Below, piece after piece: positions 35,378 through 64,000 of a stretch of 64,000 nucleotides of DNA. The notes under the pieces were generated by a model that did not search any database, was not told where the DNA came from, and saw nothing but the letters and a program-made list of their open reading frames with translations. Every line of letters starts with the position of its first letter. Positions within the stretch are counted from its first letter, which is position 1. Made by a program: the position numbers and the translations under genes. The stretch is from Mobula hypostoma (lineage: Eukaryota): assembly GCF_963921235.1 (NCBI RefSeq), contig NC_086097.1, positions 52,392,001 to 52,456,000 of the forward strand. The letters are read 5' to 3'.

Positions 35378-35507
35378 CTGTATTAATGATTATTTCTGGC
35401 TCTGCACCAGGTTCCAAACTAACTCGATTGATAGTTCGGCCTGCAACATCAGTCCAATAAACCATCTTATCCCTGCAGTCATAATCAATACCAATAATAA
35501 TTGAACC
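35378..35507 (-). CDS. NID2: NID2 exon, LY/YWTD repeat
   Basis: ttccaag|GGT...ACAG|gttag; [43 protein letters not shown]. Confidence 0.95.
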
Positions 35508-39549: not shown

Positions 39550-39771
39550 ATGCTGGTGGAGTGCCAGGTTCAGTCCGCGTTCCTTGAATTTCTCGACCGT
39601 CTTTATCCACACACCAACAATAACCACTGTTTCCATAGCACTGCAAAGGACTGAAGTCTCCAAGCTCTGTGCACTGAGGTACATACTGGTCATCAGCTGG
39701 TCTGCCACCATAGTCTTTCAGAAGGTTGAACCTCCAGCGCTCACACACTGTCTGCGGTTGCGGTGAGAGTT
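39550..39771 (-). CDS. NID2: NID2 exon, most C-terminal thyroglobulin type-1 domain (likely ortholog of mammalian TY2)
   Basis: ttccag|AA...T|gtgaga; 222 nt; [76 protein letters not shown] and CWCV motifs. Confidence 0.96.
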
Positions 39772-41324: not shown

Positions 41325-43995
41325 GTCTTTGAAGAACTACCACCAACATATCATCTGTGAAAGCAGAGGAGCCAACACACCTGACCATTTAGGATGGTGG
41401 TGAATATTGGTAGCGCAGGTTGAGGTGTTTGATGTTGTGCTGTTCACCAAGTTTGGCAAGTAGCTTGCAGATGTTTCATTGCCCATCTAAGTGACACCCT
41501 CAATGCACAGTTATTGGTCTTTCTTTCTGGAAGTGCTCGTGTTTATATACACCCCTCCCCACCTTCTGGTTCGCTTGCTGCGGTCCTGACTGGCCACCCC
41601 TTCAGTTAAGCAGAACAATAGAATCCAAAGGTCAACTAAAGGGGTAGTCAATCGGGACTGAGACAAGCGAATGGGGAGTGGGGGGGGGGGCGCGGCTATG
41701 TAAATGTGAGCACTCCCAGAGAGAAAGGCCAACAACTGTGCATGAGGATGTCGCCTCAGCTGCAAGCTAACTGCCAAGCTCGGCAAACACTGTAACATAA
41801 AACACTTGACCATTGTTATGCCACGATTAAGAACGCTTATCGTGCCGTCCAATACTAACACTTTGGAAAGTTCAGTCACCTGGCTGTACTTCTACTCCCA
41901 CCGTATAGGCAGGGACTAAAGACAACGGCACCAATGGTAAGGACCAAGAGGCATGGTCAGGGGAGGTGGAGGAGTGCTTACAGGACTGCTCTGAGTCAGT
42001 GGACTGGGTATTATTCAGGGATTCACTTCAAATCTGAATGAATACTCCACAGTTGTCTTCATTAAGATCTGTGTGGTTCTGTGTGTGCCAACAAGAACAT
42101 ACCAGACATACCCAAACCAAAAGCTGTGCATGAACCAGGAGATTTGTAGCCTGCCAAGAGTTAGATCTGTGGCATTGAAGACTGGTGATCCAGAACTATG
42201 CGAGTAGTCCAGTTACGACCTATGGAAGGCTACTTTAAGAGCGTGAAAACAATGTTGATCAAAGTTCGGGGTGGGATTGGATGCGTGCCAGCTCTGGCAG
42301 GGTTAGCAGGCCATTATTTTCTACAAAGCCAAACCCAACATCATGAATGGCTGTGCTGTTGAATTCCCAGATGAGCTCAAAGCCTTTTATGCATGCTTTG
42401 AAAGGGAGAATAAGGCTGCATCTGTGCGAATCCCTGCAGCATCTGGTGATCCTGTGATCTCTGTCTTAGAGGCCAATGTCAGAACATCTTTCAAGAGAGT
42501 GAACTTTCACAAGCTGTCAGGTTCTGATGGTGTACCCGCTAGGGCACAAAAAACCTGTGCGAACCAACAGGAGGGCGTGTTCAAGGACATCTTTAATCTC
42601 ACACATGCTTCAAAAGGGTGGCAATCATACCAGTGCCCAAGAGCAGGGTGAGCTGCCTCAACAACTATTGTCCAGTTGCACTCACATCTACCGTGATGAA
42701 GTGCTTTGAGAGGTTGGTCATGGCCACAATCAACTCCTGCCTAATCAAGGACCTAGATGCCCTGCAATTTGTCTATCACCACAACAGGTCTATAGTGGAT
42801 ACAATCTCACTGGCTCCCCACTTGGCATTAGATCACCTGGACAATAGCAATACCCATGTCAGCCTGCAGTTTATTGATTACAGCTCAGCATTGAACACAA
42901 TCATACCCTCAGTTCTAATCAACAAGCTTCAAAACCTGGGCCTCTGTCCCTCCTGCTGCAAATGGATCCTTAACTTCCTCTCTGGGCGACTACAGTCTGT
43001 GCAGATTGGAAATAACATCTCCTCCTTGCTGACAATCAACTTTGGCTCACCTCAAGAATGTGTGCTTAGCCCACTGCTCTACTCTCTCTACACCCACGGC
43101 TGTGTAGCTAGGCACAGCTCAAATGCCATCTATAAATTTGTTGAGGACAGAACTATTGTAAACAGAATTTCAGATGGTGTACAGGAGCAAGATAGATCAG
43201 CTGGTTGAGTGGTGTCACAGCAACAACCTTGCCCTCAATGCCAGTAAGACCAAGGAATTGCTTGTGGACTTCAGGAAGGGAAATCATGGGAACACAACCA
43301 GTCCTCATCTACGAATCAAAAATAGAAAGGGTGAGCAGTTTCAGGTTCCTGGGATCAACATCTGAGGATCTGCCCTCTTTGTAGTAGCATCAACATATTG
43401 ATGCAATTACATAGAAGGCATGACAGCAGCTATATTTCATTAGGAGTTTGAAGAGAATTGGCATGTCACCAAAGACACTTCTACAGATGCACTGTGCAGA
43501 GCATTCCAGTTGGTTGTATCACCATCTGGTATGGAAAGGCCGCAGCACAGAATCAGAAAAAGCTGCAGAAAGTTGTAAACTCTGCCAGCTCCAACATGGG
43601 AACTAGCCTTTCCAATATTGAGGACACCTTCAAAAGGCAATGGCTCGAAAAGGTGTCATCCCTCATTGAGGATCCCATCAGCCAGGACATGTCCCCTCTG
43701 ATTGCTACCATCAAGAAGGTAGTACAGGAGCTTGAAGACACCCTCAGCATTTCAGGACCAGCTTCTTCTCCCACACCATCAGATTTCTGAATGGACAATG
43801 AACCTGTGAACACTCCTCACTTGTAACTTGTGATTATTATTTGCTCTCTTTTTGCACTACTAGTTGAATTTACTTTCATATATACTTCTGTTGTAATTTA
43901 GTTTATTTTTATTATTATGCATTGCGATATACTGCTGCCCCAAAACAACAAATTTCACAACATATGCCAGTGGTATTAAATCAGATTCTGATTCT
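41325..43995 (+). mobile_element. Rex1/Babar LINE (endonuclease end, RT and 3' tail) inserted in a minus-strand CR1 and itself interrupted by a Penelope-like piece (~41390-41800)
   Basis: ORF 42618-43208 [17 protein letters not shown]...[15 protein letters not shown]; tail gattctgattct; flanking caacttgaa (41316) and caacttcaa (43996) as TSD. Confidence 0.85.
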
Positions 43996-44204
43996 CAACT
44001 TCAATATAATATCCCAACTCGTACTCAGTGCTTTGATTGACGAAGGCCAATATGCCAAAAGCTCTCTTTACCACCCTATCTATCTGTAATGCCACTTTCA
44101 TGGAATTATGGATCTATATTCCCAGATCCCTCTGTTCTACCAAACTCCTCAGGGCCCTACCGTTCACTGTGCGTGTTCTGTGTAATCCCCTGCATTATTC
44201 AATC

Positions 44205-45012
44205 AACTATTGGAGTTCAACACAGATAAGTGTGAAGTGGTTCATTTTGGTAGGTCAAATATGATGGCAGAATATAGCATTAATGGTAAGACTCTTGACA
44301 GTGTGGAGGATCAGAAGGACCTCGGATTCCGAGTCCATAGGACACTCAAAGCTGCTACGCAGGTTGACTCTGTGGTTAAGAAGGCATACGGTGTATTGGC
44401 CTTCATCAATCATCGGATTGAATTTAAGAGCCGAGAAGTAATGTTGCAGCTATATAGGACCCTGGTCAGACCCCACTTGGAGTACTGTGCTCAGTTCTGG
44501 TCGTCTCACTACAGGAAAGACGTGGAAAACATAGGAAGGGTGCAGAGGAGATTTACAAGGATGTTGCCTGGATTGGGGAGCATGCAATATGAGAATAGAT
44601 TGAGTGAACTCATCATTTTCTCCTTGGAGCAATGGAGGATGAGAGGTGACTTGATAGAGGTGTACAAGATAATGAGAGGCATTGATCACGTGGATAGTCA
44701 GAGGCTTTTCCCCAGGGCTGAAATGGCTAGCACGAGAGGGCATAGTTTTAAGGTGCTTGGAAGTAGGTACAGAGGAGATGTCAGGGGTAAGTTTTTTTTT
44801 TACGAGAGAGTGGTGAGTGTGTGGAATGGGCTGCCGGCGGCGGTGGTGGAGGCAGATACGATAGGGTCTTTTGAGAGACTCCTGGATGGCTACATGGAGC
44901 TTAGAAAAATAGAGCGCTATGAGTAAAGTCTAGGTAGCTCTAAGGTAGGGACACGTTCGGCACAACTTTGTGGGCCGAAGGGCCTGTATTGTGCTGTATG
45001 CTTTCTATGTTT
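44205..45012 (+). mobile_element. Young CR1 3' fragment
   Basis: 238-aa open frame FNTDKCEVVHFG...LVRPHLEYC...RMRGDLIEVYKIMRG...; (tttctatg) tail. Confidence 0.9.
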
Positions 45013-45870
45013 CTGTTTTTCTTTAAAAAAAATAGAAGGTAGGTCAGTATGGTGAATATTTAATTACAAGATCCTATATTTAAATACTAGGTATTACATG
45101 TCAGTAAGAGATTAAAAGCAACTCGTTAGAAGGATAGTTGCAGAAATAGATTTCAACAAAAACAGTTAAAAACAGACAAGTTAGATATCAGTTTGGAAAC
45201 ATTTAAGCAAATTAAGAGCCAAACTGTACAGCAGGTAAGTAAAAACTAAAATTAAGAGAAAACTAAAATGAAGTATCTATTAGTTGAAGGAAGCCATCTT
45301 GTAGTTGAACGTGAGGAAATAATAGAGAAGCTATATAACCATTTCTCCTCAGCTTTGCAGAGGAGAACTGAAGGCACAAAGGAGCTCCTGATGAGGAAGT
45401 GGAGGTCACCACTGAATGTAAGCATTCACAGAGAAACTGCATTTAAAAAAAGCCAATTGGCTTAAAAAAGGAAAGCAATCAAGCTTAAATGATGAGGGCC
45501 CCCAGAACAGAAAAAAGATTGTCGAAGAAACAGCAAAGATTTTAAAATCTGGTAGAAAAAGTTGTGTGTTAACTCCAAACTTCGCAGTAGCTAAATTGGA
45601 TATCATAATGTGATACCAAATTAATGATGACATTGTCTTACAAGGAATAGCTTAAAATTTAAAGAGGGAAAATGAATTTGTTTAAGTGACATATTAGGTA
45701 ATGATATAATTGACTTTGAGAATGTACTTGGTGTGCCTCAACTAAAACTAAAGGCCAATGGTGTGAATGAGTAAATAGATCTGAAGAAAAAAAAGCTTAA
45801 AAACAAAAGTTAGAAATAATACATAAGCAAATTAAGAGCAAGATTATATTACAAGAAGGGAGAAAAAGTA

Positions 45871-48800
45871 CGGTGTCTATAAAAAGAATTCACCTCCCGG
45901 CCCCGGAAGTTTTCATGTTTTGTTGTTTAATGTTTTATTTTCATGCTTAATTTAGCTTTTCTGACACTGATCAACAGAAAACGACTCTTTAATGTCAAAG
46001 TAAAAACAGATCTCTTAAAAGTGATCTAAATTAATAACAAATATAAAACACAAAATAATCAACTGCATAAGTATTCAACACCTTTAATATAACACACAAA
46101 ATCATCACTGTTGCAGCCAATTGGTTTTAGAAGTCTCATAATCAGTTAAATGGAGATCTGTTTTTGGAGACCTGTGTGCAGTCAAGTCATTCCAGTTGAT
46201 TGTAGTAAAAATACACCTGTAAATAGAAGATTCAACCTCTGGCAAGTCAGTATCTTGGAAAAAACTACATCATGAAGACAGAAGAACACTCCAAACAACT
46301 CTGCCAAAAGGTTATTGAAAAACACAAGTCAGGAGATGGGTACGAGAAAATTTCCAAGTCACTGAAAATCCCTTGGAGTACAGTTAAGTCAATCATCGAG
46401 AAATGAAAAGAATATGGCACAGATGTAAATCCGCCTAGAGCAGGCCATCCTTAAAACCTGAGTGACCGCGCAAGAAGGCGACTAGTGAGGGAGGCCACCA
46501 AGAGACCCTATACAACTCTGGAGGAGTTACAAGCTTCAGTGGCTGAGATGGGAAAGACTGCATGTAGAACAACTGTTGCCCAGTTGCTTCACCAGTCACG
46601 GCTTTATGGGAGAGTGGCAAAGAGAAAGCCACTGTTGAGAAAAATTCACATGAAACATTGGCTAGAGTTTGCCAGAAGGCATGTGAGAGACTCTGAAGTC
46701 AGCTGGAAGAAGATTCTATGGTCTGATGAAACCAAAATTGAACTTTTTGGCCGTCAGACTAAATGCTATGTTTGGTATAATCAAAAACACACCATCCCTA
46801 TCGTACAGCCTGGTGGTGGCTGCATCATACTGTGGGGATGTGGCCTGGAAGGCTCGAGAAGGTAGAGGGTAAAATTAATGCAGCAAAATGCAGGGAAATC
46901 CTGGAGGAAAACCTAATGCAGTCTGCATGAGAACTGTGACGTGGGAGATTTGTTTTCCAGCTAGAAAATTACCCCAAGCATAAAGCCAAAATTACCACAG
47001 GAATGGTTTAAAAACAACAAAGTTAATGTTGTCCTGAAGTGGCCATGTCAGAGTCCAGACCTCAAACCAATTAAGAATTCGTGGCTGGACTTGAAAGGGG
47101 CTGTTCACTCATGATCCCCCCCATGTAATCTGACAGAGCTTGAGCAGTATAAAGAATGGGGAAAAACTGCAGTGTCTAGATATCCTGGCAGGGAGATTAG
47201 CGGGGGCTACTGAGGTGACTTTAACCTAGAATGGTTGGGGGGTGGGAATCAAATTAAAGAGGCTAGGCGTGAGGAGGTTAGTTCACAACAGAGGGATGGG
47301 AACCAGTGCAGAGAGACAGAGGGGTGTAAAGTGAGCGTAGAAGCAAAAAGTACAAAGGAGAAAAGTAAAAGTGGCAGGCCGACAAATCCAGGGCAAGCAT
47401 TAAAAAGGGCCACTTTTCAACATAATTGTACAAGGGCTAAGAGAGTTGTAAAAGAGCGCCTGAAGGCTTTATGTGTCAATGCAAGGAGCATTTGTAATAA
47501 GGTAGATGAATTGAAAGTGCAGATTGTTATTAATGATTATGATATAGTTGGGATCACAGAGACATGGCTCCAGGGTGACCAGGGATGGGAGCTCAACGTT
47601 CAGGGATATTCAATATTCAGGAGGGATAGACATGAAGGAAGGGGAGGTGGGGTGGCGTTGCTGGTTAAAGAAGAGATTAACGCAATAGAAAGGAAGGACA
47701 TAAGCTGGGAAGATGTGGAATCGATATGGGTAGAGCTGCGTAACACTAAGGGGCAGAAGACGCTGGTGGTAGTTGTGTACAGGCCACCTAACAGTAGTAG
47801 TGAGGTCGGAGATGGTATTAAACAGGAAATTAGAAATGTGTGCAATAAAGGAACAGCAGTTATAATGGGTGACTTCAATCTACATGTAGACTGGGTGAAC
47901 CAAATTGGTAAAGGTGCTGAGGAAGAGGATTTCTTGGAATGTATGCGGGATGGTTTTTTGAACCAACATGTTGAGGAACCAACTAGAGAGCAGGCTATTC
48001 TGGACTGGGTTTTGAGCAATGAGGAAGGGTTAATTAGCGATCTTGTCGTGAGAGGCCCCTTGGGTAAGAGTGACCATAACATGGTGGAATTCTTCATTAA
48101 TATGGAGAGTGACATAGTTAATTCAGAAACAAAGGTTCTGAACTTAAAGAGGGGTAACTTTGAAGGTATGAGACATGAATTAGCTAAGATAGACTGGCAA
48201 ATGACACTTCAAGGATTGACGGTGGATATGCAATGGCAAGCATTTAAAGGTTGCATGGATGAACTACAACAATTGTTCATCCCAGTTTGGCAAAAGAATA
48301 AATCAAGGAAGGTAGTGCACCCGTGGCTGACAAGAGAAATTAGGGATAGTATCAATTCCAAAGAAGTAGCATACAAATTAGCCAGAGAAAGTGGCTCACC
48401 TGAGGACTGGGAGAAATTCAGAGTTCAGCAGAGGAGGACAAAGGGCTTAATTAGGAAGAGGAAAAAAGATTATGAGAGAAAACTGGCGGGGAACATAAAA
48501 ACGGACTGTAAAAGCTTTTATAGATATGTAAAAAGGAAAAGACTGGTAAAGACAAATGTAGGTCCCCTGAAGACAGAAACAGGTGAATTGATTATGGGGA
48601 GCAAGGACATGGCAGACCAATTGAATAATTACTTTGGTTCTGTCTTCACTAAGGAGGACATAAATAATCTTCCAGAAATAGTAAGGGACAGAGGGTCCAG
48701 TGAGATGGAGGAACTGAGTGAAATACATGTTAGTAGGGAAGTGGTGTTAGGTAAATTGAAGGGATTGAAGGCAGATAAATCCGCAGGGCCAGATGGTCTG

Positions 48801-50635
48801 CATCCTAGAGTGCTTAAGGAAGTAGCCCAAGAAATAGTGGATGCATTAGTGATAATTTTTCAAAACTCATTAGATTCTGGACTAGTTCCTGAGGATTGGA
48901 GGGTGGCTAATGTAACCCCACTTTTTAAAAAAGGAGGGAGAGAGAAACCGGGGAATTATAGACCGGTTAGCCTAACGTCGGTGGTGGGGAAACTGCTGGA
49001 GTCAGTTATCAAGGATGTGATAACAGCACATTTGGAAAGCGGTAAAATGATCGGACAAAGTCAGCATGGATTTGTGAAAGGAAAATCATGTCTGACGAAT
49101 CTCATAGAATTTTTTGAGGATGTAACTAGTAGAATGGATAGGGGAGAACCAGTGGATGTGGTATATTTGGATTTTCAAAAGGCTTTTGACAAGGTCCCAC
49201 ACAGGAGATTAGTGTGCAAACTTAAAGCACACGGTATTGGGGGTAAGGTATTGGTGTGGGTGGAGAATTGGTTAGCAGACAGGAAGCAAAGAGTGGGAAT
49301 AAATGGGACCTTTTCAGAATGGCAGGCGGTGACTAGTGGGGTACCGCAAGGCTCAGTGCTGGGACCCAGTTGTTTACAATATATATTAATGACTTGGATG
49401 AGGGAATTAAATGCAGCATCTCCAAGTTTGCGGATGACACGAAGCTGGGTGGTAGTGTTAGCAGTGAGAAGGATGCTAAGAGGATGCAGGGTGACTTGGA
49501 TAGGTTGGGTGAGTGGGCAAACTCATGGCAGATGCAATTTAATGTGGATAAATGTGAAGTTATCCACTTATTATCTGAATGGTGGCCGATTAGGAAAAGG
49601 GGAGGTGCAATGAGACCTGGGTGTCATTATACACCAGTCATTGAAAGTGGGCATGCAGGTACAGCAGGCGGTGAAAAAGGCGAATGGTATGCTGGCATTT
49701 ATAGCGAGAGGATTCGAGTACAGGAGCAGGGAGGTACTACTGCAGTTGTACAAGGCCTTGGTGAGACCACACCTGGAGTATTGTGTGCAGTTTTGGTCCC
49801 CTAATCTGAGGAAAGACATCTTTGCCATAGAGGGAGTACAAAGAAGGTTCACCAGATTGATTCCTGGGATGGCAGGACTTTCATATGAAGAAAGACTGGA
49901 TGAACTGGGCTTGTACTCGTTGGAATTTAGAAGATTGAGGGGGGGATCTGATTGAAACGTATAAGATCCTAAAGGGATTGGACAGGCTAGATGCAGGAAG
50001 ATTGTTCCCGATGTTGGGGAAGTCCAGAACGAGGGGTCACAGTTTGAGGATAGAGGGGAAGCCTTTTAGGACCGAGATTAGGAAAAACTTCTTCACACAG
50101 AGAGTGGTGAATCTGTGGAATTCTCTGCCACAGCAAACTGTTGAGGCCAGTTCATTGGCTATGTTTAAGAGGGAGTTAGATATGGCCCTTGTGGCTACAG
50201 GGGTCAGGGGGTATGGAGGGAAGGCTGGGGCGGGGTTCTGAGTTGGATGATCAGCCATGATCATAATAAATGGCGGTGCAGGCTCGAAGGGCCGAATGGC
50301 CTACTCCTGCACCTATTTTCTATGTTTCTATGTGCAAAGCCGATAGAGACCGATCCACACAGGCTCAAGGCTATGATTGCTGCCAAAGATGCATCTCATA
50401 AATACTAACTTGAAGGGGGAAGAGTAATTATACAGTCAATTATTTTGTGTTTAATAATTGTAATAAATTTAAACTCATCTGTAGAAATCTGTTTTCACTT
50501 TGACACAAATCTTTTTCTGTTGTTCAGTTTCAAAACAGCCAAATTAAATTCCCTGTGATACAATGTTGTAAAACAATAAAATATGAAAACTTCCGGGGGG
50601 TCGGGGTGGGTGGTGAGTACTTTTTATAGGCACTG
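45871..50635 (+). mobile_element. Tc1-family (Passport-like) transposon, split by a CR1 insertion
   Basis: TA|cggtgtctataaaaagaattcacc ... ggtgagtactttttataggcactg|TA; MKTEEHSKQL...KHKSGDGYEKISKSL; LWSDETKIELFG; WPCQSPDL. Confidence 0.9.
47181..50332 (+). mobile_element. Near-complete CR1 ORF2 (APE endonuclease and reverse transcriptase), young insertion
   Basis: 792-aa uninterrupted ORF 47235-49613 (NARSI, GITETWL, GDFN, SDH, PGNYRPVSL, DFQKAFDKV, GVPQGSVLGP); FADD follows a frameshift at ~49370; tail tttctatgtttctatg. Confidence 0.96.
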
Positions 50636-51737
50636 TAAAATTAAGTGATGCTGTACAGTATTTTTCTTCAAAAATATCACAATTAAGAGAAATATAAACT
50701 TTACTTCTTAAGTGTAAAAATGAGCAGGAAAAAGTACTGAGCAGCTGCAACTTTTGGATTAGTAAATCAGGCAGTGTCTCCTGTGTGGCTCAGTGATATG
50801 TGTTGTAACCAAATTGAAGATTTATCTGCTAAAGGATGTAAATGAAAAAATTGAAAAGATGTGGAGACTTGTTGGGTGTTTTCAGCATTTTCTGTTTTTA
50901 TCATTTAAAATCTGTGGAGTTGCTCAATTTTATGCAGCTTAGCCCAACTCATCCCCTGAAGACAAGAAATCCAATTGCCAATAAAAAAGACCAAGGCTGA
51001 TCCAGACAAGGCAAAATTTGAAAAAAAGTAGATCAACAAAGCAAAAACAAGCTGTATCCCATTGACACACAAGGCAAAAACCAGCATGTTGACAAAAGCA
51101 TAATCTTCTAAATCATGAAACACTCATCAGGTCAGCCAGCCCATTACTCTGAACATTTTCAGCATTTTCTAATTTTATTTCACATGTCCTGCAACTGCAG
51201 CTTCTTTTCTCCTCTAAGGTTTCTAATGCCTTCCTGTTTTAGAAAGTCTCCCTTTGAATTGGAAAATTGCATGTTACTCTTATGTTTAAGTCAGGTGAGA
51301 GGGAAAACCAGGAAACCATTGACGAGTTCACCTGAGATCTGCTGACAGGAAATTGAAAGGAGAATTAAAGATAAAATGACTGAACATTTTCTGCTTATCA
51401 GAATGAGCCAGCAGAGATTTGTAAAGAGTAAATGATATGTGATACACCTGAATAAATAGACTGATTGCAGCGACGGAAAGCTCCATAGTTGTGACTGTTA
51501 TTTATTAGATGTCTTCTGGACACTCAGAAAAATCCCTCAGAAGAAACCCCTGAAGTTAAAATCCATGGATCTGATGGGAACTTACTGCCCTGGCTAAGAA
51601 GTTGACTGTGAAGGTAGAAATAGTTCACTTACTGATACCATTGGCAGGATTTAACTGCTGATGTCTACAACGTTCTGACTTTGGGCCATGACTTGCCACT
51701 GTGATTTATTTGTGAGGAGGACAATGCTATAGAAAGA

Positions 51738-53108
51738 CCACTGTTTCTCTATGAGTTTCCAATTTCCACTGTTGCTGAATTAGAGAGGGTAGTCAGGCGG
51801 TTTCTGCGACGGGAATAACTGCAAACTGAGGCTCCCCCTGAAATCCATCGAGGAGGAGTTCAAGGTTTTGAGAGGTGCTGCAGTTCCGTGAACCTTCAGA
51901 TCCAAAGGCAAGAGTGGCGGTGAGAACTGGAAGAAAGCGGAGAGCAGAAGCTGCAGTGGAAGAAGCTGAGACACGGCTGCGCCACAAAGTGCTGGTGGGG
52001 GCAGTCGCCAAGGGAAGAGCTGGACGTGGAAGCCTTGAAGTCCCCCATTTTGACAAAGTACAAGGGAAAGGGCGACGAGAACTGGTCCAGAATGAAGTAA
52101 GGGCAGCTGTGGAGGAGGAGAGGACCAGCAGAGCAGTGGCGATGAAACAGCAAGGAGCCTGGACCAAATAGGAGCAGGTGATCGAGCGAAAGATCACGTG
52201 GAACGACCTCTCTGGAAGGTGGATCCACACCGCATCAAGTTCCTTATCCAGGCTGTTTATGATGTCCTTCCTAGCCCATCCAACCTACACTGCTGGGGCC
52301 TTGTAGAACGACCAGCTTGCCCCCTCTGTGAGAAGACCAGTTCGCGAGAGCATATTCTGAGCTGCTGCCCCAGAGCTCTTGCCAATGGCCGTTATTGCTG
52401 GCGGCATGACCAGGTCCTCCAGACAATTGCTGAGACAATCTGCAGCACCCTTAACATCTGCCGGAAAACAAGTCCGGTCATGAATACTATCTGCTTTGTC
52501 AAAGAGGGGGAAAGACCAACAGAACACCAGAAAGCAACCGGGTTGCTCTTCACTGCGCAGGACTGGAAGCTAAAAGCAGACCTGGGAAAACAGCTGCAGT
52601 TTCCTCCCCACATCACAGAGACTACACTGCGGCCCGACATTGTGTTGTAGTCCGACTCATTGAAGCACGTTCTTACGCTTGAGCTTACCGTGCCGTGGGA
52701 AGAACACACGGAGGAGGCCTATGAACGGAAAAGAGCCAAGTATGAAGATCTGAAGAACAATTGCCAAAGGCGAAACTGGAGTGGAAAGTGCTGGCCCATG
52801 GAGGTCGGGTGTCATGGCTTTGCAGGCCAGTCGCTCTGCAAAGTATACACTGCACTTGGAATCAGGGGAGAGAGAAGGAGAGACATTTCTGTCCCCACAG
52901 ATGCAGCAGAGAAAGTGTCAAGATGGCTCTGGATAAAGAGGGCAGATCTGTGATGCTAGGGCATAGGCCGGGGTCTGTTCAACCCCGGTCAGGTCGCCTG
53001 GGCGAGGGTGTATGATGTTGAAAGACCTGAAACATCTGACGACCCCAGTTAACATCACTGATGATGTGCCCTAGCTTAGCATCATGCAGATGTTTCTGTA
53101 AGAAGAAG
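51738..53108 (+). mobile_element. 5'-truncated Hero-clade (R2-like, restriction-like endonuclease) non-LTR retrotransposon
   Basis: AVYDVLPSPSNL, CPLC...HILSCC (CCHC knuckle), WRHDQVL, RPDIVL...LELTVPWEE...KRAKY (PD..E RLE); several stops and frameshifts. Confidence 0.85.
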
Positions 53109-56100
53109 GACTATGAAGGTAGAAATAGGTCACTTACTGATACCATTGGCAGGATCTAACTGCTGATGTCTGCAACATTCTGATTTTGGGCCACAACTTA
53201 CCACTGTAATTTATTTGTGATGAGGACAATGCAATAGAAAAGCCCATATACATGTTTGCCCATAAGTGACAATCAGACAGCATTGTAAGCAATGCAGATT
53301 AAATCACAAATAGAACTGTCACCTCACAACTCTACAGAGCTAGGTTCAGTACAGATCTTTGTGTGGGATGTACATGTTCCACAGTTAACTGGGACCCCTG
53401 GTTCCTCCCCCATCCCAATGATGTGTTGGCTGGTAGATTATTTAACCACTGTGAAATGCCCTGCCCTAGTGTGTGTGATGGTGAGTGGTAGAAACTGCAG
53501 GAGATAATAGGAATGTGCAGAGGATAGGTTGCAAGGAAAATTAGTGGGGTCAAACAACTACTTGTTAAAATGACAGACTTGAAGGAAATGTAGAAAACTA
53601 CGTGAGAAATGAACTTCAACATAGCCAAACTTGAGGTCATTTGCCCGAGACCTGAAAAGACAGAAATATTTAATATTTAATCAGCAAGAGGAACTGATGC
53701 TAAGACTGGAGCTATTTCTACTGGTTTAGGAGGTCTACAACTAGGGGCATCATGTAAAACTTGAAACCAAACCATTCAGGAATAATGTTAAGAAAGAGGC
53801 AGATAACAGAAAAGGAATTATACCAAAGAAAGTTGATGCCAGTTCAGATATTTTTATATTTGAGCTTTAAAAATTACTGCTCATCAATGAAGAATAATAA
53901 CAATAACAACTTATAGAGCACTTTTAAGTATAAAGAACTTTCCATATGGATGATGCGGTTCAAAGAGCTTTACAGTGGGATAAAAGTACAAACATAAAAA
54001 TAAAATTAAAATAAAAAGAGAAAGAAACATGAAAATAAAAGACAAAAGATGTTGGTTAAAAGCAAGGTTAAATAAATGGGTTTTGAGCCAGAGTTAAAAG
54101 TGTCAACTGAGTCTTCATTCCTTATAGTTTTAGATATTGAATTCCAGGGTTTAGGAGCATGGTTCAAAAAGCTGATCTTTTGAGGAAGATTGTTTAAATT
54201 TAAAAGAGTGGCAGAGAAGACCTGGGAAATCGAGCAGGATTAGACAATGAAAACAATTCTGTGTACACTGGTCCTAGGCCATTAAGAGCTTTAAAAACAA
54301 TATCAATTCTCAAATAATTCTAAATGAAGAGCATGACAGGTTAGAATAAGGATCTGTCACAATCACATTAAATAGGAGAAGAGCCTCACAAGGATAGAGA
54401 ACCAAATCCTAGTCCTACAATTTCCTTCCATTTTAAATTTTGGTTTAAATTGAAATTTAATTTTAATTTAAATTGAAATTGAAATCAAGTGGAAATTGGA
54501 CAGTTTAAAACACAGGCATCAGGTTGTAGCCGGCTGAAAGGTTATATCCAGGTGATAACTGAGAATTATCTTGCCCCATCTAGCAATAGTTAGCGAGGAC
54601 TCAGAAACATATAGCAAAAGGGCATATATAATGGATTTGGGAAAGGAAAGACAAGTCCAATTAGAGTGGATAGTTTTAGTGAAAAATGATGGGCTGAATG
54701 GCCTTTTCTTCAGTTTCCATGGTTGAGGGTTTCTAGTTTAAGATGATGCTGGTGAAGTCCAGTGACTGCTTATTGGCGGCAAACAAAACAAACAATACAA
54801 TAAATACTTTGTTAATAACACTTTTTCTGTTATAATCTCTGGAAAATGATCACCACAAATAATGGAGAGGCAAGGCATAGTCTGAGGGTTGAAGGAGCGG
54901 ATGCGAGGCAGAGCCAGGGCAAGCAGAGGTGAGGCATAGTTGAGGCCCATCCACCAAAACCTGAAGTTTGATAGATCTAAGTGCCAGGCTATTTTGGAAA
55001 GTTCAGGTACGGGCTGAAATGTGGCGGCGCGGTCCGGGCCCAAGACATTTCGAAGCCACAGGGCCCATGTCCTGGAGTGAGGAACGACCTGATGTTCGAA
55101 CAAAGTAAATGGCTGGCCATATTGAAAAGGGAGGGTGTCGGTACCAGACGCAAGGGTTGGGCTGGTTCTGTTCACTGCTCGGGGACTTTATTCAGCTCTG
55201 TGCTGAACTAAGCTGTGGATCTCCTCCAGGCTTTGTGTCTGTGGACACACTTTTGTTCTGAATGCTTTTTGCTTACTTTTATTGTTTGCACAATTTGTTT
55301 CTTTTTCCCTCTCTGCACACTGGAGGCTTGGCTGTCTTTTTTTTAATGGGTTCCTTTGTTTTGTGGCTGTCTGTAAGGAGATGAATTCAAGGTTGTACAA
55401 GATAAACATACTTTGATAATAAATGTGCTTTGAACTTTTGAAGTTTGAATATCATACCCATAGGCATGAACTTGATTTTGGAGATTATTTCAAGAATAAC
55501 ATGCGCAAAAAATACTTTTCCAGCAATTTTATCTAAAGTAGCTACTTTCTAATTAATGATATAAAACATCTTCGTTTGTGACAAGGCATTGGCCAAGTAG
55601 CATGGACAAATATAGTGGCACCATTCTGGATCAACTAATTAATTCTTATAGTGTCCCCACTGCTAAATCATCATAAAGATTTAGTCTCCATTATCGTGCA
55701 TAAGAGAGGGAATGGAATGTTAATTGTTCATCATGACAAAGCATTTACTGAACTGCATTTTATTAAAATCACTTTATAATTGCTGGTCCAGAAACTGTGG
55801 TCTTTTTTTAAAACAATTATCCAACTAACTCTTTCTATCTCCATTATTCCATTTAGTATCCCATTGGCTTCCAGCTCTTCCCCCCCCCCACCCGCACTAC
55901 CACCTTCACCCACCCTAATATCTCCACACAAAGTAAAGAATTTGTTCAATCAATCATTAAAACGTAATGTATCCCTCTCACATTTTGACACTCAGTTATT
56001 CCCCTTCAACACACACTGAACATATTCTTGGGTTCAGAGTTAGCTGGCTCTCCCCTAAGCAGATTCTAATCTTTGAGTCTTTAAACCACCCTTACTGCCA

Positions 56101-58257
56101 TGGTCTAGCTGTACAACCACAGGATCTGGAAATTGTTACATTCACACACTTTGTACTGGATATTTATTTATTTATTTATTTATTGAGAGACAGCATGGAA
56201 CAGGCTCCTTCCAGCCCTTCGAGCTGTGCCACCCAGCAGCCTCTGATTCACGGGGAGAGTGTACAAACCGCTTACAGGCAGCAGCAGCAAATGAACCCAG
56301 GTTGCTGGTATCATCAAGCATTGTATTGACCTCTACGCTACTGTGCCAACCCAAACAGGCCCTTCTGGCCATGTGCCCGTGCCACCCAATTACACCCATA
56401 TGATCCATTAACCTATTATGAGGGGTGCTGGAGAGAATATTAAGCCACAGAAATTGTTTACAAGGTGCCTGATTAAACAAATCCTTTAAAGTTGTGCAGG
56501 GGGAGCTAGGGTGGAGGAAGCAAATGGAGTACTAAGTCCATTAAAACACAAATATTTAAGTAGTAAATATCTGGAAAGATAAGCCACTAGAAAACGTTTC
56601 CTTATGATTTAATAGGAAAACACTGCAGCTCATGAGTCAAAGGCAGCACACAAAGCAATCCCATTTCCCAGTAAATTTCTCTGTAACCTATTCTCCCCAT
56701 GACCTGATCAATTCCCAAATTCCAAATTTCACCTACACAATAGAGGCAATTATCAGAAGCAATTCAACCATAAAGCTGCAAGACTTTTGGGAAATGCACA
56801 TAAACTGCTAGAGGAACTCACCCGATCAGGCATCATCTACAGAGGGAAATAAACATTGTGGTTCAAACCAGAGGAAAGGTATCCTCAATAGTATGCAAGT
56901 GTGACTGGAGGAGCAGAACTGTTGCATATTCTTGACAGGCATAAAGTCTCACAACCAGCTATTGGAGTGGGGGTCATTCTTGAAGTAACACACCTCATTT
57001 CCTTGATGACCCAGCTCTCTTCACTGGTCAAACTCTGGGCTACATTATACTGAGAGTTGCAGATTCCTCTCACATGCTATTGTAAATTCTCCTGAGTGTA
57101 GGATTCGGCAGGAGAACTGAGTAGGCTGACAGCTTATTGGAATGCAAGAGGGAAGTTCAGCTGCATACGGGCGGCAGGACCCATTCCCGAGTTCTCTGAC
57201 CACCACATTTGAACCCAATTGCTCGTAGTTTGGACATTTGTCTGATTTAAAGACATTGGGCTACAAACATCTGTTTAACTAACAGATTCAACATTGCTTA
57301 GATGCATAGCTGCTCACCCAAGTGTACATTGCTACACTTTGCATTAGCGATACTACAACCTGAAACACAGACAACCTCAAACGTCCAGTTCTCTATATCA
57401 TTTAACTATGAATATTCAGCATCAGTTAATTAATGTAAGGTTTATAAAACAACATGTCTTTGAAAATGTGACAAATATGCATTTAAAGTACAGTTACTTT
57501 TAGGGACAACTTTATTCAGTCATATATAGTATCTATTGGTATTGTTGTGACAGTGACCTTTTAAACATCTCTAAGTTACCATCAGCACTCTGCGTAAATT
57601 CCTACAGATTGACTGGCAAGATGAATGATCAAATGTCAGCAGCTCTGACCATGTCACTAGCTCTGCTTCCCTTATAACAATGAATCACGTCTGAAGATCC
57701 AGTCACATAACTTGAGAGCTTGATATCAGGCTCCCAAAACTGATACACTGCTACGAGCCCCCTCAGGGCAAATGTCTGCCAGGTCACAGAGGAAAGGATT
57801 CAAGGATATTTTCAAGGTGACCATGACAAGAAGTGTAACATCCCCACTGTTTGGTCAAAACAGAAGATGAATGTTTAGCGTGGCACAGAGTACTTCAAGA
57901 CCATGTAGTGAAAGCACAAAGAAGCCCAGAGTAAACAACAGCAGCATCTGACTTCACCACCTACTGGCTGCTGTCCCCACCTACGTCAGACTCTGCAAGC
58001 CTCACGTCAGCTTCATCAGTCAGCTCAGAGTTTGGAGTGGAAGCATGTCATCCTCGAGAAAGGGGGTTATAGTACAAAGTCTGGATTTCAATAGCCTATT
58101 TTTGTTATTTACAGAATTTTAAATCACAAGTGGTTTGAAGATTACTATTGAACTTATTCTGATGCCAAATTTGATGGAGCAATGGAGTGAGAAACCAATT
58201 ATGTTTCCCAACAGAAATCATTACAACGCTCTCCAAAGTAAAATTGCGCCCACTCAC

Positions 58258-58503
58258 CTGGCTGCCCACATTGTGGATGAGCGCTTCCAGGAAGAGTCCG
58301 AGTCCCAGAAATTTCTCGCCCCAGTTCATCCACACACCAGCACTGCCCTGTGCTGCTGTGACATTGCAGAGGCTTGAAGTTGCCTTCGGCATCACACTGA
58401 GGGACGTACACACCGACAGCAGGTCGAGGTCTGCTCTGACTGAGCTCCGCCTGTACTTGATCCCGCAGCTCTACACAAGGTGGCTTTGAATTTTCCGTCA
58501 ATA
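58258..58503 (-). CDS. NID2: NID2 thyroglobulin type-1 repeat exon (intact)
   Basis: ctag|TA...G|gtgagt; 246 nt, phase 1-1; LTENSKPPCVELRDQVQAELSQSRPRPAVGVYVPQCDAEGNFKPLQCHSSTGQCWCVDELGREISGTRTLPGSAHPQCGQP; six Cys. Confidence 0.92.
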
Positions 58504-58859
58504 CTAGTTAATCGCAAAAAAAAAACACAACACAATTTCAAATCAGCAGAAATGAAATATATTAATTATGGTATTACAACATCTATAATAATGCATGATT
58601 GTTTTTCATTCTTGTAACTTCATCACAAAATTAAAAATGAATTTTTTCTCCTACAACTGGGTCCAATAACAAATGAGTTTCAACCGAGATCTTCAAATGC
58701 TTTCTCTTTTACTGCCTTGTGGTTTTCGTCTGATACTGTGGTTATTTACCACACATGAAAATACACATGGAAGCTAAAGAGTAGGCCACTCAGCACTTCA
58801 AGTCAGCTCCATCAATCAATATTCTTTCAATAAAGTTTATTTTTTAAATAAAAGTTTGC

Positions 58860-59530
58860 ATTGGTTTATTATTCTCACTTAACTGTTACATCTTTTCATA
58901 AGGTACAGTGAAAAGCTCATCTTGCATTCTGTTCATACAGATCAATTGATTACACAGTGCATTGACATAGAACCAGGTAAAATAATAATAGAATACAGAA
59001 TAAAGTGTAAAAGTTACAGAGAAATTGAAGTGCAGTGAACAATAAGAAGTGCAAGAGCATAACAAGATAGATAGTGAGATCAAGAGTCAATATAATTGTA
59101 CAACAAGCCCATTCAAGGGTCTGAGAACAAAGTGATGACTTGAGCCTGTTGGTATGGACTTTCAGGCTTCTGCCTGTTGGGAGAGGAGAGAAGGTCTGGG
59201 ATGGGTGGATCTTTGATTGTGCTGGCTGTTTTACTAAGGCAATAAAAAATATTGACAGGGTCCAGAGAGAGGAGGCTGGTCTCCATGATGAACTGAGCTG
59301 TGTCCGCACCTTTCTGCAGTTTCTTGTGGTCACGTGCAGAGCAGTTGCCATACTAAGCCATTATGCTTCCAGATTTAATACTTTCTATGGTGCGTCAACA
59401 AAAATTGGTAAGAGTTGATGGTGTCATGCCAAATTTCTTTAGACTCCTGAGGAAGTAGAGACATTAGTGAGTTTTTTGGCCATGACATCAATGTGGCTGG
59501 ACAGGAACAGGCTAGTGGTTATATTCAAAG
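58860..59530 (-). mobile_element. Rex1-type LINE 3' fragment
   Basis: tttattattctcact...acagtgaaaagctcatcttgcattc tail and agactcctgaggaagtagag core typical of the family seen elsewhere in the window. Confidence 0.6.
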
Positions 59531-60312
59531 TTCAAATAAATATATTATCAAATTATATACATGTTACTGTACCATATGAAACCCTGAAATTTGTTTTCTT
59601 ATGGGCGTACTCAATAAATCCAATAACCATAATAGAATGCACATATCATCCGGAAGAAGATGGTGCCAGCAAACAACGCTACCAGAGGCAACGTTCTCCA
59701 GATAGACTACAAAACTGTTTCTTTCACTTCTTCTGTGTCTTCTTTTTTGTTTAATATGGTTCTGGTCCTTTTGGAGCACATGGTCTATAATTTCATGGCA
59801 TGTTTTCAGGCAGATTGAACGATCTTGCTGGTCACAGGTCTCCAATCTGAAGAGTTTTCCACAATAATGACGGATGCCCAACTAAATTAGCTACACTGAC
59901 TTTTTTTTTCAACCACAGCACCACATTTTAATCAGCTGTAACTTCAATCTTACATTTGTGTCAGAAAGTTCAAGGTGACTAATACAGTACTAGGGGAGAG
60001 GTGTAGTGTCAGACGTCATGTTTCTCAGATTAGATATCAAACTAAAATCTCTTAGTATTGTGTAGATGAAGGATGGTCAAGGTGTTTGCCAAATGTTCTG
60101 AGCATGCCATTGCTTGGAAAAGAGATGACCTGGTTTGAAGAATTTTGTTTGTGCGCAGTGGCCGTATTCACTCCCATATTACAACAGCAACAGTACTATA
60201 AAGTATGCAAGTTTATTGTAAAAACACTTATTCCAAGATCAACTCGTGCTATATATGTTTCTACTTTTGATTATGACACTACATAAATGGCTTCATTCAA
60301 ATTCTGACTGGC

Positions 60313-60558
60313 CTGACTGCCCACAAAGTGGTTGACCAGTCCCAGGTCCTTTACGGATCCCAGGAAATTCCTGCCCATTTTCATCCACACACCAGCAATA
60401 ACCCATACCACTGTGGCACTGTATTGCCTTGTGGTTTTCTGCGTCATCACACTGGGGGACACAGACTCCAGTTGGATGATCAAGTCCATATTGGCTCAGT
60501 TCTGTTAGCACTCTCTCATGGTGCTATGCACAGGCACTCTTTGGATGTTCAATATATT
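60313..60558 (-). pseudogene. NID2: Degenerate thyroglobulin type-1 pseudo-exon within NID2
   Basis: YIEHPKSACA*HHERVLTELSQYGLDHPTGVCVPQCDDAENHKAIQCHSGMGYCWCVDENGQEFPGIRKGPGTGQPLCGQS; in-frame TAG at 60524-60526, no AG at the homologous acceptor, donor GCCAGT instead of GTCAGT. Confidence 0.85.
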
Positions 60559-61336
60559 TGAATAAGAAATTTAAAAAAACACACACACAGGCAGGAAACA
60601 TTTATGAAACAAATGCAAAAATAATTCAGACTGGGTCACTGCATGGTCATATCTATCCCAGAAAATCACAACGTATGACAAAGCTCACATCCACTACTCT
60701 AAATTTATTGTTAGTTACTTTTTCTGTATCCTGTACCTATCAGAACCCACACTTACAAGTCAGGTACAATTTGTTGCAGACAGAAACTTAGATTCCAGGC
60801 TCAGTTGTTTGCAAGTATACTTACACCAGAGTAGATTACAGTATGTGAAAGTTAAATGACAGCAATTACATAGAACAGTACTGCAGAGTACACATCCTTT
60901 GGCCAACAATGTTGTGCTGACCTTTTAACCTTCTCCAAGATCAATCTAACCCACCCTTTCACATAGCCCATTTTTTCATTTGTTCTGTTAATAAGAGGAT
61001 TATTCCTGCTGGAGTTTAACTGGGAGGATGTTTGTTTGGGTATGTAAGATTCATTTCTATGGAATTTACAAGGGATAAAATCCTTTGGAATATAACTAAT
61101 TGTAAAGAAACAAAATGAAATTAACAAACACACACAATGTTTGCAATGAGCAGAGTGGTTGAATTATCTTAACACAGTTTCTCAATTGCAATCTATTTTT
61201 TCATAAAGAACAACATTGTTCACATCAGCATTTCAGAGTAAAGACAAGCTGAATCAGAATCAGACTTATTATCACTGACCTATGTCGTGAAATATGCTAT
61301 TTTGGGGCAGCAGTAGAGTGCAGTACATAAACAAAG

Positions 61337-61723
61337 AACCTAGAACATAGAGGTCTACAGCACATTACAGGCCCTTTGGCCCACAATGTTATGCCGACCA
61401 TGTAACCTACTCTAGAAACTAGCTAGAATGTCCCTAGCACATCGCCCTCTATTCTTCTAAGCTCCATGTACCTATCTAAGAGGCTCTTAAAAGACCCTAT
61501 TGTATCCACTTCCACCACCGCTGCTGGCAGTGCATTCCACGCACCCACCACTCTCCGTGTGAAAAACGTACCCCTGACATCCCCTCGGTACCTATTTCCA
61601 AGCCCCTTAAAACTATGCCCCCTTGTGTTAGCCATTTCAGCCCTGGGAAAAAGCCTCTGGCTATCCACGTGATCAATGCCTCTCATCATCTTATACACCT
61701 TTATCAGGTCACCTCTCATACTT
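61337..61723 (-). mobile_element. CR1 3' fragment (same subfamily as 44205-45012)
   Basis: RGDLIKVYKMMRGIDHVDSQRLFPRAEMANTRGHSFK. Confidence 0.88.
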
Positions 61724-61753
61724 TGACCTGATAGAGGTGTCTAAGATGATGAG

Positions 61754-61871
61754 TCTTTTTCTGTTGATCAGTGTCAAAAAAGCCAAATTAAATCCACTGT
61801 GATTCAATGTTGTAAAAGAATAAAACATGAAAACTTCCTGGGAGTGGGGTGAATGCATTTTAGAGACACTG
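61754..61871 (+). mobile_element. Isolated right-TIR fragment of the Passport-like Tc1 family
   Basis: Closely matches 50510-50635 (ctttttctgttg...gccaaattaaat...catgaaaacttcc...cactg|TA). Confidence 0.8.
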
Positions 61872-62599
61872 TATCTATATACTGTCTATATGTATATTGT
61901 CATGTCCATTTATCACGCAAGGGGAAAAAAAATCACACATAAGCCCTCATGCATTATGATATACTTTGGGCGTGTTATTCTTGATAGATCTATTTAGTGT
62001 CAAAGATCACTTGTACTCAATGGCTTATCAATAAAAAATAAACTGGATTTAAAAACATTATAAAGATATGAAGATCTCTGGAATACCTGGTAAGCTAAAG
62101 AGAGAAATATTTTAATCAAAGGAAGTTAACTTGGTCATTTCTCATAATTGTTTCTCAGTTTCAATCCCTTTTCTCTTTAAGTCTATTTGCAAAGCTTAAT
62201 TGACAAAAAATTATCCAAAGCTGAAAACTTGAATTAATGTTTAATTAACTTAGAGAACAATGATGCCAAAGAAAATAAATGAATGGATGTAAGGGTTGGC
62301 GAGAGTGACTTATAAGAAAGATGAAGAGGATTAGATGGGTGACATAATCAAGAGAGAACCCAAAGATCACAACTGAAAATGAATGTAATTAATGCAGTTA
62401 TTTTAGATCAATAATAGTTCGTGTAGTGCCAACTGCACTTTGCAACTAGAAATGCTAAAATTAATTGTTTTCATTATGATCAGTTTGTATTATGTACTGG
62501 TGGTTCATCAAGTTTTTAAATCAGTCTCAACAAAAACAATTTGTTAAGCTTCTTTTTTTTTACACACAATTGGAAAGGTGTTTTAAAATGCTGACTGAC

Positions 62600-62839
62600 C
62601 CGGCTCCCCACAGCGTGGCTGACCAGTTCCAGGGGCTGTCCTCGTCCCGGGAACCTCCTGTCCATTCTCGTACACACACCAGCAGTATCCTGTGCTGCTG
62701 TGACACTGCATCAGCCTGAACTTTCCTTCTTCGTCACACTGAGGGATGTGGAGTCCAACGAGAGGCCCGCGCAGGCTCACCTCTGCTTGTGTCTGTTCTC
62801 GCTGCTGCTCACAAGCAGACTTTGAACGTTCATTGGCCA
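62600..62839 (-). CDS. NID2: NID2 thyroglobulin type-1 repeat exon (intact)
   Basis: ttattag|TG...G|gtcagt; 240 nt, phase 1-1; VANERSKSACEQQREQTQAEVSLRGPLVGLHIPQCDEEGKFRLMQCHSSTGYCWCVYENGQEVPGTRTAPGTGQPRCGEP. Confidence 0.92.
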
Positions 62840-64000
62840 CTAATAAAATAGAATGGTTTTGAAACAATTTCTAATAAAAGTTGCAATTCTCTCAAAGAGC
62901 CTCTGTTGACATCACTTCTATTAAACCTAGAGGGGGCCCTGTGGGCTAGAAATTTTGCAACCGCCAAGGTGCATTTAATAGACACAAGGTATATTGACAA
63001 GGCAACCTTGATATAGGAGTGCCTTGGGCAAGCATTTCTAAAATAACCAGTCCAAGCTCTCCCAATACTCTCAAGGGGAACTGCAAGAGGAATAACTCCA
63101 TTCAGTGTGCCCCAGTGGAGCAATCTCACTGGTGTATAAAAGCAACTCACACCAGGAAATGACCATTTAAGTGTTTGGAACATATATTATAGAACAGTAC
63201 AGCACAGGAACTGGACCTTCTGCCTAAATTGCCTGCACCGAACACAATTCCAAATTAAACTGCATCCCTTCTGTCTGCAAATGATCCACTTCTCTCCATT
63301 CCTTGCATAGTCAGATGTCTAGCTAAAAATCTCTTAAACACCACTACTCTATTGTACCTGCTTTCATTACCACAATGGAAGGAGACGAAGCTAAACAAAG
63401 TAGCCATTACCATCTTCTTTCTGGAAAAATCAATGGCTTTCTGTAACCTAATGTGGAAAAGCAGCTATATTAGGTAATTTCTCGGCAACTCAGTTTACAG
63501 GAGAGGAACCATCCTTGAGCTAATGATTTTTAGTTCCAATGCATCTCACATAATCCACCACCACAGTTCATCTGTATTTCATCACACCCAACGCAGTTTA
63601 TAATTTCATTACAGGCATAACTGTCAAAACTTTAATAGGGTTTCTCAGTACAGTATCGTTATTAAATATTTATTCTGAATAACTTATAGCAGGGGAATTT
63701 TGAAAAATCCTGAAGAAAACGGAACAGCAAGTCAGCTGTCGGAGGCTCTGTACTCGATGAATTGCGCTCTCCCTCTCTCGTTGGAGGGCGAAAGATTGTT
63801 GCCGATTCTGCGGGCGGAGAACTTGGGCGGAGTGGGGGAAGGTGGCGCGAGAGATTTTTAGCACTGTAAATCAGTGAGTTGTTTTGTTCTGTCTCCCCTC
63901 TCACTGTGAAAGGGGACACTTCCCTTTCCCTTTATTGGGGAGAGAGACAGCCTGTGGCATGTCGAATTGTTGGGTGAACGAACAATTTTGCTGTCCTTCA

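Follow-up and report, generated by a model that had tools for sequence, protein, structure and literature searches.

In nidogens, the G2 domain binds collagen IV and perlecan and the G3 domain binds laminin gamma-1, as is known from the mammalian and zebrafish proteins, and the thyroglobulin type-1 (TY) domains are counted in the literature as part of the rod. Nidogen domain composition has been called highly conserved. Mammalian NID2 (osteonidogen) has the order NIDO-G2F-EGF-TY-G3, with four EGF modules in the rod and two TY domains in ~1390 aa; an EGF module after G3 is found in NID1, not in nidogen-2. Zebrafish Nid2a has six TY domains in print, and teleost nidogen-2 gene models carry up to 12, with isoform models that step by ~80 aa. 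Outside the nidogens, thyroglobulin has eleven tandem TY domains, and the thyropins (MEROPS I31: p41 fragment, saxiphilin, equistatin) are inhibitory, with loop 1 as their specificity loop; in saxiphilin the TY repeats block cysteine proteases at around 1 nM.

Nidogen-2 of the ray Mobula hypostoma shares with mammalian NID2 the domain order, the lack of an EGF module after G3 and an orthologous last TY, and with zebrafish Nid2a and teleost nidogen-2 the additional TY domains N-terminal of G3. It differs from the mammalian protein in having 19–20 rather than two TY domains, 1–2 rather than four rod EGF modules, and a length of ~2650 aa. Shark and ray arrays are about twice as long as those of teleosts, and their repeats cluster separately. 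The ray protein has about twice as many TY domains as thyroglobulin, and they are much more uniform; its repeats share with thyropins the six-cysteine type-1A form with QC and CWCV motifs, but do not appear to derive from the saxiphilin group. LPA kringle IV and the tenascin FN3 cassettes are likewise arrays of same-phase exons with copy turnover and in-frame skipping; ray NID2 differs from these in being a core basement-membrane linker whose edge copies are conserved. The earlier note could not tell whether the expansion had already been described in fishes. For zebrafish the six TY domains have been, and for the NID2 array of sharks and rays our literature search turned up no paper, the array being present only in automatic annotation.

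The window analyzed here is a 64,000-nt stretch of the M. hypostoma genome that contains the 3' part of the array, with the following features:

62600–62839, minus strand: live 240-nt TY exon A of phase 1-1, encoding the third-last repeat of the protein
60313–60558, minus strand: TY pseudoexon B (246 nt, dead)
58258–58503, minus strand: live 246-nt TY exon C of phase 1-1, encoding the penultimate repeat
39550–39771, minus strand: TY exon D, last repeat (222 nt, phase 1-1), fixed across jawed vertebrates
36777–36944, minus strand: nid2 exon with Pro/Thr linker and start of G3 (tblastn, ends approximate; 100% identical to the 20-TY model)
35376–35507, minus strand: nid2 G3 (YWTD/LY) exon, matched to the 20-TY model
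33592–33765, minus strand: nid2 G3 (LY) exon, PF00058
32908–33066, minus strand: nid2 G3 (LY) exon, PF00058
32651–32776, minus strand: nid2 G3 exon, matched to the 20-TY model
30700–30819, minus strand: last nid2 G3 exon (ends approximate)
27541–27756, plus strand: frame of the C-terminal RTRAF exon (PF10036, E = 2.7e-29), a tail-to-tail neighbor outside the array

The gene is nidogen-2, as had been proposed from the sequence alone. Each of A, B, C and D matches PF00086 (E = 1e-16 to 1e-24; B via the part after its stop), and these minus-strand exons are followed directly by the PF00058 (LY/YWTD) propeller exons of G3. The 20-TY model (P0218) also contains NIDO and G2F, both encoded upstream of the window; it stops two residues past the last G3 exon, without a terminal EGF module. 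The carboxylesterase-like C-terminal domain of thyroglobulin is absent from this model but present in the control P0285. The last TY domain clusters with the last TY of NID2 and not with NID1 (clade support 99–100). Against the 20-TY model the nine live window exons showed 96.5–100% identity, the two lower values reflecting alignment overrun. A, C and D matched at 100% the last three of the 19–20 TY repeats in M. hypostoma NID2 models, and in XP_062904811.1 and XP_062904848.1 they were 100% identical together with the G3 exons. Both accessions are automatic annotation only, under the name "uncharacterized protein nid2a", and one Mobula NID2 isoform carries the label thyroglobulin. On the practical side, giant NID2 models of this kind get wrong names.

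The expected four TY units, three of them intact, were recovered: A, C and D have open frames and AG/GT ends, encode six-cysteine domains with a helix plus a beta-hairpin, and in D the codon of the sixth cysteine is shared with the next exon. The start-to-start distances of the closely spaced copies are 2055 and 2287 nt, in agreement with the proposed 2.1–2.3 kb. An nhmmer profile built from A–D found no fifth copy in the 64-kb window (next match E = 8.2), nor a hidden TY copy in the 18.5-kb intron between C and D. Between the A, B and C units, introns showed no likeness outside the exon edges and pieces of mobile elements.

Pseudoexon B lacks an acceptor AG, has a GC donor and carries a TAG stop at 60524–60526. 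Nine of its 32 conserved columns are altered; the QC and CWCV motifs are present, plus one extra cysteine. Rescue by a cryptic acceptor was rejected after nine AGs had been tried, the in-frame ones either carrying a stop or dropping the first cysteine, and no use of any of the nine was seen in contigs. B is also missing from the RefSeq nid2a protein models of M. hypostoma. Its orthologue is a live repeat at the same position in the electric ray Narcine.

Contigs from four runs of two studies, presumed rather than recorded to be RNA, all contained a joint between 58503 and 62600 with CT..AC ends, which connects A to C and skips B; no contig covered B in these runs. Over 30 letters, the loose contig end of C agrees with the beginning of D at 28. 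Thus exons A and C splice into nid2, as the earlier note had supposed. Upstream, contigs link a further TY repeat to A, and A-like variant copies are also present; the loose end behind 62842 codes for the end of a TY repeat outside the window. Together with the 16–17 upstream repeats in gene models, this bears out the suggestion that the array runs beyond the window edge. Variants that skip an exon in frame, as predicted, are present among the gene models (isoform X4 is without exon A), and exon skipping may set array length in vivo.

The number of TY domains in NID2 proved to have been understated by the earlier count of at least four. Across the 15 elasmobranch species retrieved, NID2 contains 11–27 TY domains, at least 15 in 14 species and at least 11 in all, according to automatic protein models in which near-identical repeats may be mis-assembled. 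Among the matches listed (120 of 1133 homologues), all 19 elasmobranch NID2 models have 11–26, with up to 27 among isoforms. Elsewhere we counted seven in chimaera, three each in coelacanth and gar, up to 12 in teleosts and 1–3 in amniotes, in a sample without hagfish, lungfish, amphibians and skates. In all 15 elasmobranchs the array lies between EGF and G3. The rod EGF modules, four in the sampled coelacanth and amniotes, number just 1–2 in rays, where the link from G2 to G3 therefore consists almost entirely of TY repeats.

Trees of individual repeats (~75 columns, many open forks; a quick version is cited here) showed stability between species for the first repeat and for the last two. A copy orthologous to C by position is present in 12 of the 15 elasmobranchs, sharks and rays alike, while A belongs to a fast-turnover ray subfamily from the middle of the array. 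A recent local triplication of A, B and C was rejected (AU test, p = 8.2e-5): the three are 63–68% identical in nucleotides and C is old. Among internal chondrichthyan repeats, 268 of 269 have exactly six cysteines, so folding is conserved; the nearest neighbor lies in the same genus or family for 223 of 269, and in Mobula alternating repeat pairs are 95–100% identical. These three observations indicate that copies are interchangeable and free to vary in number. By parsimony the jawed-vertebrate ancestor had ~3 TY domains and the elasmobranch ancestor 15–18. Hence elasmobranchs did undergo an expansion, though an old one, and mammals with their two copies are reduced. The proposed lineage-specific duplication therefore stands for elasmobranchs as a whole and falls for the A/B/C trio; the objection that three or more repeats might be ancestral holds to the extent that mammals lost copies, but the elasmobranch rise to 15–27 is still an expansion. 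Repeats of ray-finned fishes cluster apart from chondrichthyan ones with weak to moderate support, pointing to possibly parallel expansions in teleosts and chondrichthyans. We regard the exon anatomy and the history of the array as near-certain.

We propose that the ~20 TY repeats would form a long, flexible, length-variable spacer between G2 and G3, a reading to which we give an even chance, and that the array likely gains and loses copies when phase 1-1 exons cross over unequally. Free variation in the number of interchangeable copies is expected of a spacer. The inter-TY linkers are Pro-rich and 11–14 residues long, and a motif scan of the array found no RGD and a single N-glycosylation motif. 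In an AlphaFold prediction of A-C-D-G3 (pTM 0.54), TY cores mostly had pLDDT 83–89 and linkers below 50, which is weak evidence of flexibility as low linker pLDDT is frequent in repeat proteins; the predicted G3 superimposed on the nidogen propeller 1NPE with an rmsd of 1.4 (TM 0.96 by target). Counting against a spacer, the zebrafish paper interprets predicted models to mean that the extra repeats loop away. Moreover, the fin fold of zebrafish nid2a morphants, whose protein has six TY domains, is rescued by mouse Nid2 mRNA encoding two, so the extra length is dispensable there. A link of repeat number to the thickness of glomerular basement membranes found no support: thick ones occur in sharks as well as in hagfish and axolotl, and those of bony fish are compact, despite the up to 12 repeats of teleosts.

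The same rescue would fit a near-neutral accordion, in which symmetric exons duplicate and die, selection purges misfolded copies, and their number has no adaptive meaning. The 1–27 range across vertebrates and the dead copy B inside the array agree with this, and the module appears prone to expansion, having also multiplied in frog saxiphilin-like transferrins (7–12) and in a TY-only protein of smelt (26). However, drift alone should have dropped some lineages to 2–3 copies, whereas elasmobranch counts are high on both sides of the shark–ray split, although the middle has turned over almost completely, and the penultimate and last copies are kept by position; we consider the accordion unlikely. 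Large counts might instead reflect mis-assembly or mis-annotation, or a TY-only gene of its own that gene prediction merged with nid2, given that many Mobula repeats are 99–100% identical, that TY-only genes occur in fishes, and that a common source may underlie both the window and the RefSeq model. Agreement among 15 species on the position of the array, and contigs that link upstream TY, A, C and D one to the next and include the A-like variants, make an artefact extremely improbable.

The earlier note also suggested a protease-inhibitor array, in which the repeats or fragments released from them would inhibit or titrate papain-family cathepsins as saxiphilin or p41 TY domains do. Saxiphilin is among the best single-domain PDB matches, loop 1 is variable and loop 2 conserved (1.19 versus 0.68 bits), and nidogens are attacked by cathepsin S. 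Yet the literature demonstrates no inhibition by nidogen: entactin does not inhibit papain, and NID1 TY acts only at 100-fold excess and is itself cut by cathepsin S. Nor does the likeness to saxiphilin appear specific: a hemichordate papilin-like protein has the shared loop-2 motif too, which is thus not diagnostic, and frog saxiphilin-like repeats are as close to NID1 repeats as to NID2-internal ones (mean identity 0.47 versus 0.47). The frog repeats fall outside those of NID2, which gives no support to an origin of saxiphilin TY from NID2 internal repeats. The ESM Atlas returned generic TY clusters and nothing more. The inhibitor claim thus found no positive support, and we rate it unlikely. 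A multivalent array that binds a matrix partner, for instance hemicentin-1, with raised avidity would accord with domain swaps in which the affinity for hemicentin-1 depended in part on the mouse TY domains, and with the conservation of the G3-proximal copies C and D; but the last two TY domains plus G3 already bind hemicentin, and the middle copies turn over too quickly for a fixed interface, which makes this reading improbable.

Returning to the spacer, the nidogen-2 linker is likely a much longer, length-variable tether and not a protease-inhibitor array. We think it quite doubtful that giant NID2 proteins (~290–360 kDa, 15–27 TY) are both a splice-tunable laminin–collagen IV ruler and a multivalent cathepsin shield. 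If they were, repeat number would be a selected parameter of basement-membrane spacing, tuned by lineage and tissue, which teleosts would have invented a second time and amniotes would have lost. The window displays the dynamics of the nidogen-2 array side by side: a last copy that is fixed, a penultimate one that is old, a copy dead here but live in electric rays, and a young copy. Across vertebrate gene models the connector between G2 and G3 of nidogen-2 ranges from 1 to 27 TY domains, a natural allelic series for relating linker length to laminin and collagen IV spacing and for the role of TY domains in nidogens.

Four thyroglobulin type-1 (TY) exons of nidogen-2 (nid2/NID2), labelled A to D in transcript order, lie in the window, together with the end of a neighbouring gene:

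62600-62839, minus strand, TY exon A, 240 nt, live
60313-60558, minus strand, TY exon B, 246 nt, dead copy
58258-58503, minus strand, TY exon C, 246 nt, live
39550-39771, minus strand, TY exon D, 222 nt, live
27541-27756, plus strand, C-terminal RTRAF exon (PF10036), convergent with nid2

Exons A, C and D share phase 1-1, open frames, and AG and GT ends. B lacks the AG, has GC in place of GT, and carries a TAG stop at 60524-60526. The earlier note had counted at least four TY stretches (58258, 60313, 62600 and 39550), three of them intact, and this count holds, with B as the defective copy. An nhmmer model built from A to D found no fifth TY copy in the 64-kb window. The linker and the YWTD propeller of the globular domain G3 are encoded by six exons from 36944 to 30700. 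RTRAF presumably neighbours NID2 in the human genome. All nine live exons match within the final 527 residues of P0218, the RefSeq Mobula hypostoma nid2a isoform X1 protein model (NIDO, G2F, EGF, 20 TY and G3 domains), seven at 100% identity and two at 96.5-97.5% with the alignment running past the exon edge; the window thus ends the array with three of its 19-20 repeats, by a model that is not independent of it and may stem from the same assembly.

Contigs were mapped on 57001-64000 from four public runs, which come from two studies and two coded organisms and are RNA by guess only, with one of the four flagged as probably DNA. A joint between A and C (58503-62600, CT..AC ends) occurred in all four, and none covered the bin 60277-60510 inside B. 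Exact GT-AG joints and sparse intron cover argue for cDNA, although the contigs may instead derive from a processed DNA copy. One run has a loose end at 58258 that matches the start of D in 28 of 30 letters; another loose end, behind 62842, codes for the end of a further TY repeat, and a third for a linker absent from the window. Both of these peptides are present in devil-ray NID2 models, the TY end immediately upstream of A. A and C therefore belong to the nid2 transcript, as the joint indicates, and the array runs beyond the window edge, as the earlier note had suspected, given the TY end behind 62842 and the 20 TY of P0218. Its further proposal of in-frame skipping is borne out by gene models, in which A is absent and the upstream repeat is joined to C (one of four listed M. 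hypostoma models, one of 11 full-length M. birostris models); among the contigs there is a weak hint, in that the C contig of one run stops where the exon does, and depth over the A-C joint is roughly one third of that over C. TY counts also vary across isoform models (20-27 in Scyliorhinus canicula, 14-15 in Narcine). A-like variant contigs were abundant, and five of seven variant sites among those listed were synonymous, with 45 rows beyond the listing; depth gives no copy number. The M. birostris nid2 isoform X12 model, auto-named thyroglobulin, stops shortly past the TY array and lacks G3; if real, it would be a secreted protein that lacks the domain for laminin binding.

Among the best 120 of 1133 homologue matches were at least 19 shark and ray NID2 models from at least 15 species, and all 19 had 11-26 TY (one isoform, 27). 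That these counts are an artefact is very improbable. Elsewhere we counted seven in chimaera, six in bichir, three in coelacanth, paddlefish, gar and eels, 1-12 in teleosts (low values likely reflecting partial models), three in ducks and malkoha, two in turtles, lizards, platypus and tenrec, and one in marsupial models. All TY counts, those of sharks and rays included, come from retrieved models and so are lower bounds; sampling was without amphibians, lungfish, hagfish and skates. NID1 and lamprey nidogen-2 have one TY, and a Ciona nidogen-like protein three. Cys counts give 1-2 rod EGF modules for rays, 2-3 for sharks, and four for coelacanth and amniotes. Parsimony (35 taxa on a textbook tree) placed three TY in the jawed-vertebrate ancestor, seven in chondrichthyans, 15-18 in elasmobranchs and two in amniotes, but, because copies get replaced over time, it does not tell retention of three from their regain. 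The lineage-specific expansion claimed earlier thus stands for the 11-27 TY of sharks and rays, but not for the first three, which parsimony already gives to the jawed-vertebrate ancestor. In ducks and a malkoha the two internal copies are closely similar, which points to a recent duplication within birds; both retrieved marsupial models keep the last TY only, by loss or isoform choice. Parallel TY accordions occur in other genes: saxiphilin-like proteins of frogs have 7-12 TY, and secreted TY-only proteins of teleosts, labelled thyroglobulin-like, have 14-26.

In a repeat tree (FastTree, 76 columns, many open forks), the last TY formed a single clade across jawed vertebrates (support 99-100). 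Internal repeats clustered by lineage: 270 chondrichthyan rows were one group (support 92), within which 242 shark and ray rows shut out all chimaera repeats (support 95). Of 269 internal repeats, 223 had their nearest neighbour in the same genus or family. In the tree, C fell in a 12-member clade (support 97-99) whose members are all penultimate repeats, drawn from 12 of the 15 elasmobranch species; the type is missing at that position in all three carpet sharks. B paired with a live same-position Narcine repeat (support 97; 63% identity), with which it shares six residues rare elsewhere, and A lay among ray repeats at 82-90% identity. Of 32 conserved columns, nine are changed in B and one each in A and C; since the live Narcine copy is changed at seven, part of the divergence of B is older than its loss. 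A, B and C are 63-68% identical in DNA, and their units showed no intron likeness past the exon edges and mobile-element pieces. A joint A+B+C group was rejected (AU p=8.2e-5, 68 rows), which, with the breadth of the C clade, speaks against a local triplication. The Mobula array includes alternating repeat pairs at 95-100% identity. Unequal crossing-over would leave stable edges and a homogenised middle, and the fixed edge copies and uniform middle fit this prediction; the expansion mechanism is ordinary. The C-D intron (39772-58257) measures 18.5 kb against ~2 kb array spacing, with no TY copy inside, and may shield the fixed last exon D from crossing-over.

Other elements include a broken Tc1/mariner (Sleeping Beauty-like) transposase at 5556-6625 (plus strand; HTH_SB and DDE_3 in separate frames), a G-rich tandem repeat at 463-701 (~5 units, period 47 or 96), and, by eye, CR1/L2-type LINE-like pieces at 1517-2391, 3704-4134, 17511-19120, ~60850-61850 and elsewhere. 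Three tested pieces gave no Pfam match; those in introns had very deep cover in the runs.

What the array does can be approached from its modules. Exactly six Cys are kept in 268 of 269 internal repeats, hence each copy must fold, while copy identity and number are loose. Near-neutral turnover of repeats is unlikely as the explanation. Linkers between TY are Pro-rich and 11-14 residues long; AlphaFold gave confident TY cores and low-confidence linkers (pTM 0.54), and the G3 model overlays the 1NPE nidogen propeller. In mammals, the TY domains are part of the rod, with G2 as the binding site for collagen IV and perlecan and G3 as that for laminin. The simplest reading would be a long beads-on-a-string tether, and we put a spacer role at about an even chance; by our own estimate of 3-4 nm per module, 20 modules may span 60-80 nm. 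Against it, mouse Nid2 is reported to rescue zebrafish nid2a knockdown, and glomerular basement-membrane thickness does not track repeat number.

The earlier note had offered an extended rod or a protease-inhibitor array, and the rod is the half we favour. Cathepsin inhibition or decoy by the repeats is unlikely: saxiphilin is among their top structural relatives, but frog saxiphilin-like repeats are as near to NID1 as to NID2-internal repeats and are not nested among the latter, and published assays on mammalian nidogen were negative or weak. Multivalent binding is more doubtful still.

The array is a real feature, an unusual form of the known protein NID2, and is already present in automatic annotation. 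Novinec et al. 2006, the main survey of TY proteins, may mention fish duplications. Six TY domains are given for zebrafish Nid2a in a supplementary figure legend (bioRxiv 10.1101/2021.11.24.469833); further sources are 10.1101/2025.06.18.660348, PMC3464141, PMC7863939, PMC8322073, PMC10889554, PMC10746531, PMC10972974, PMC3429489 and PMC6584486. Within the searchable literature, outside which most subscription journals lie, we found nothing on a shark or ray NID2 TY array among the papers listed, and no match for nid2 with shark and thyroglobulin or for nidogen with thyroglobulin and exon duplication. The shark and ray array holds about twice the repeat count of thyroglobulin; that a core basement-membrane linker carries an array of this size throughout sharks and rays appears not to have been described in that literature, and is directly testable.
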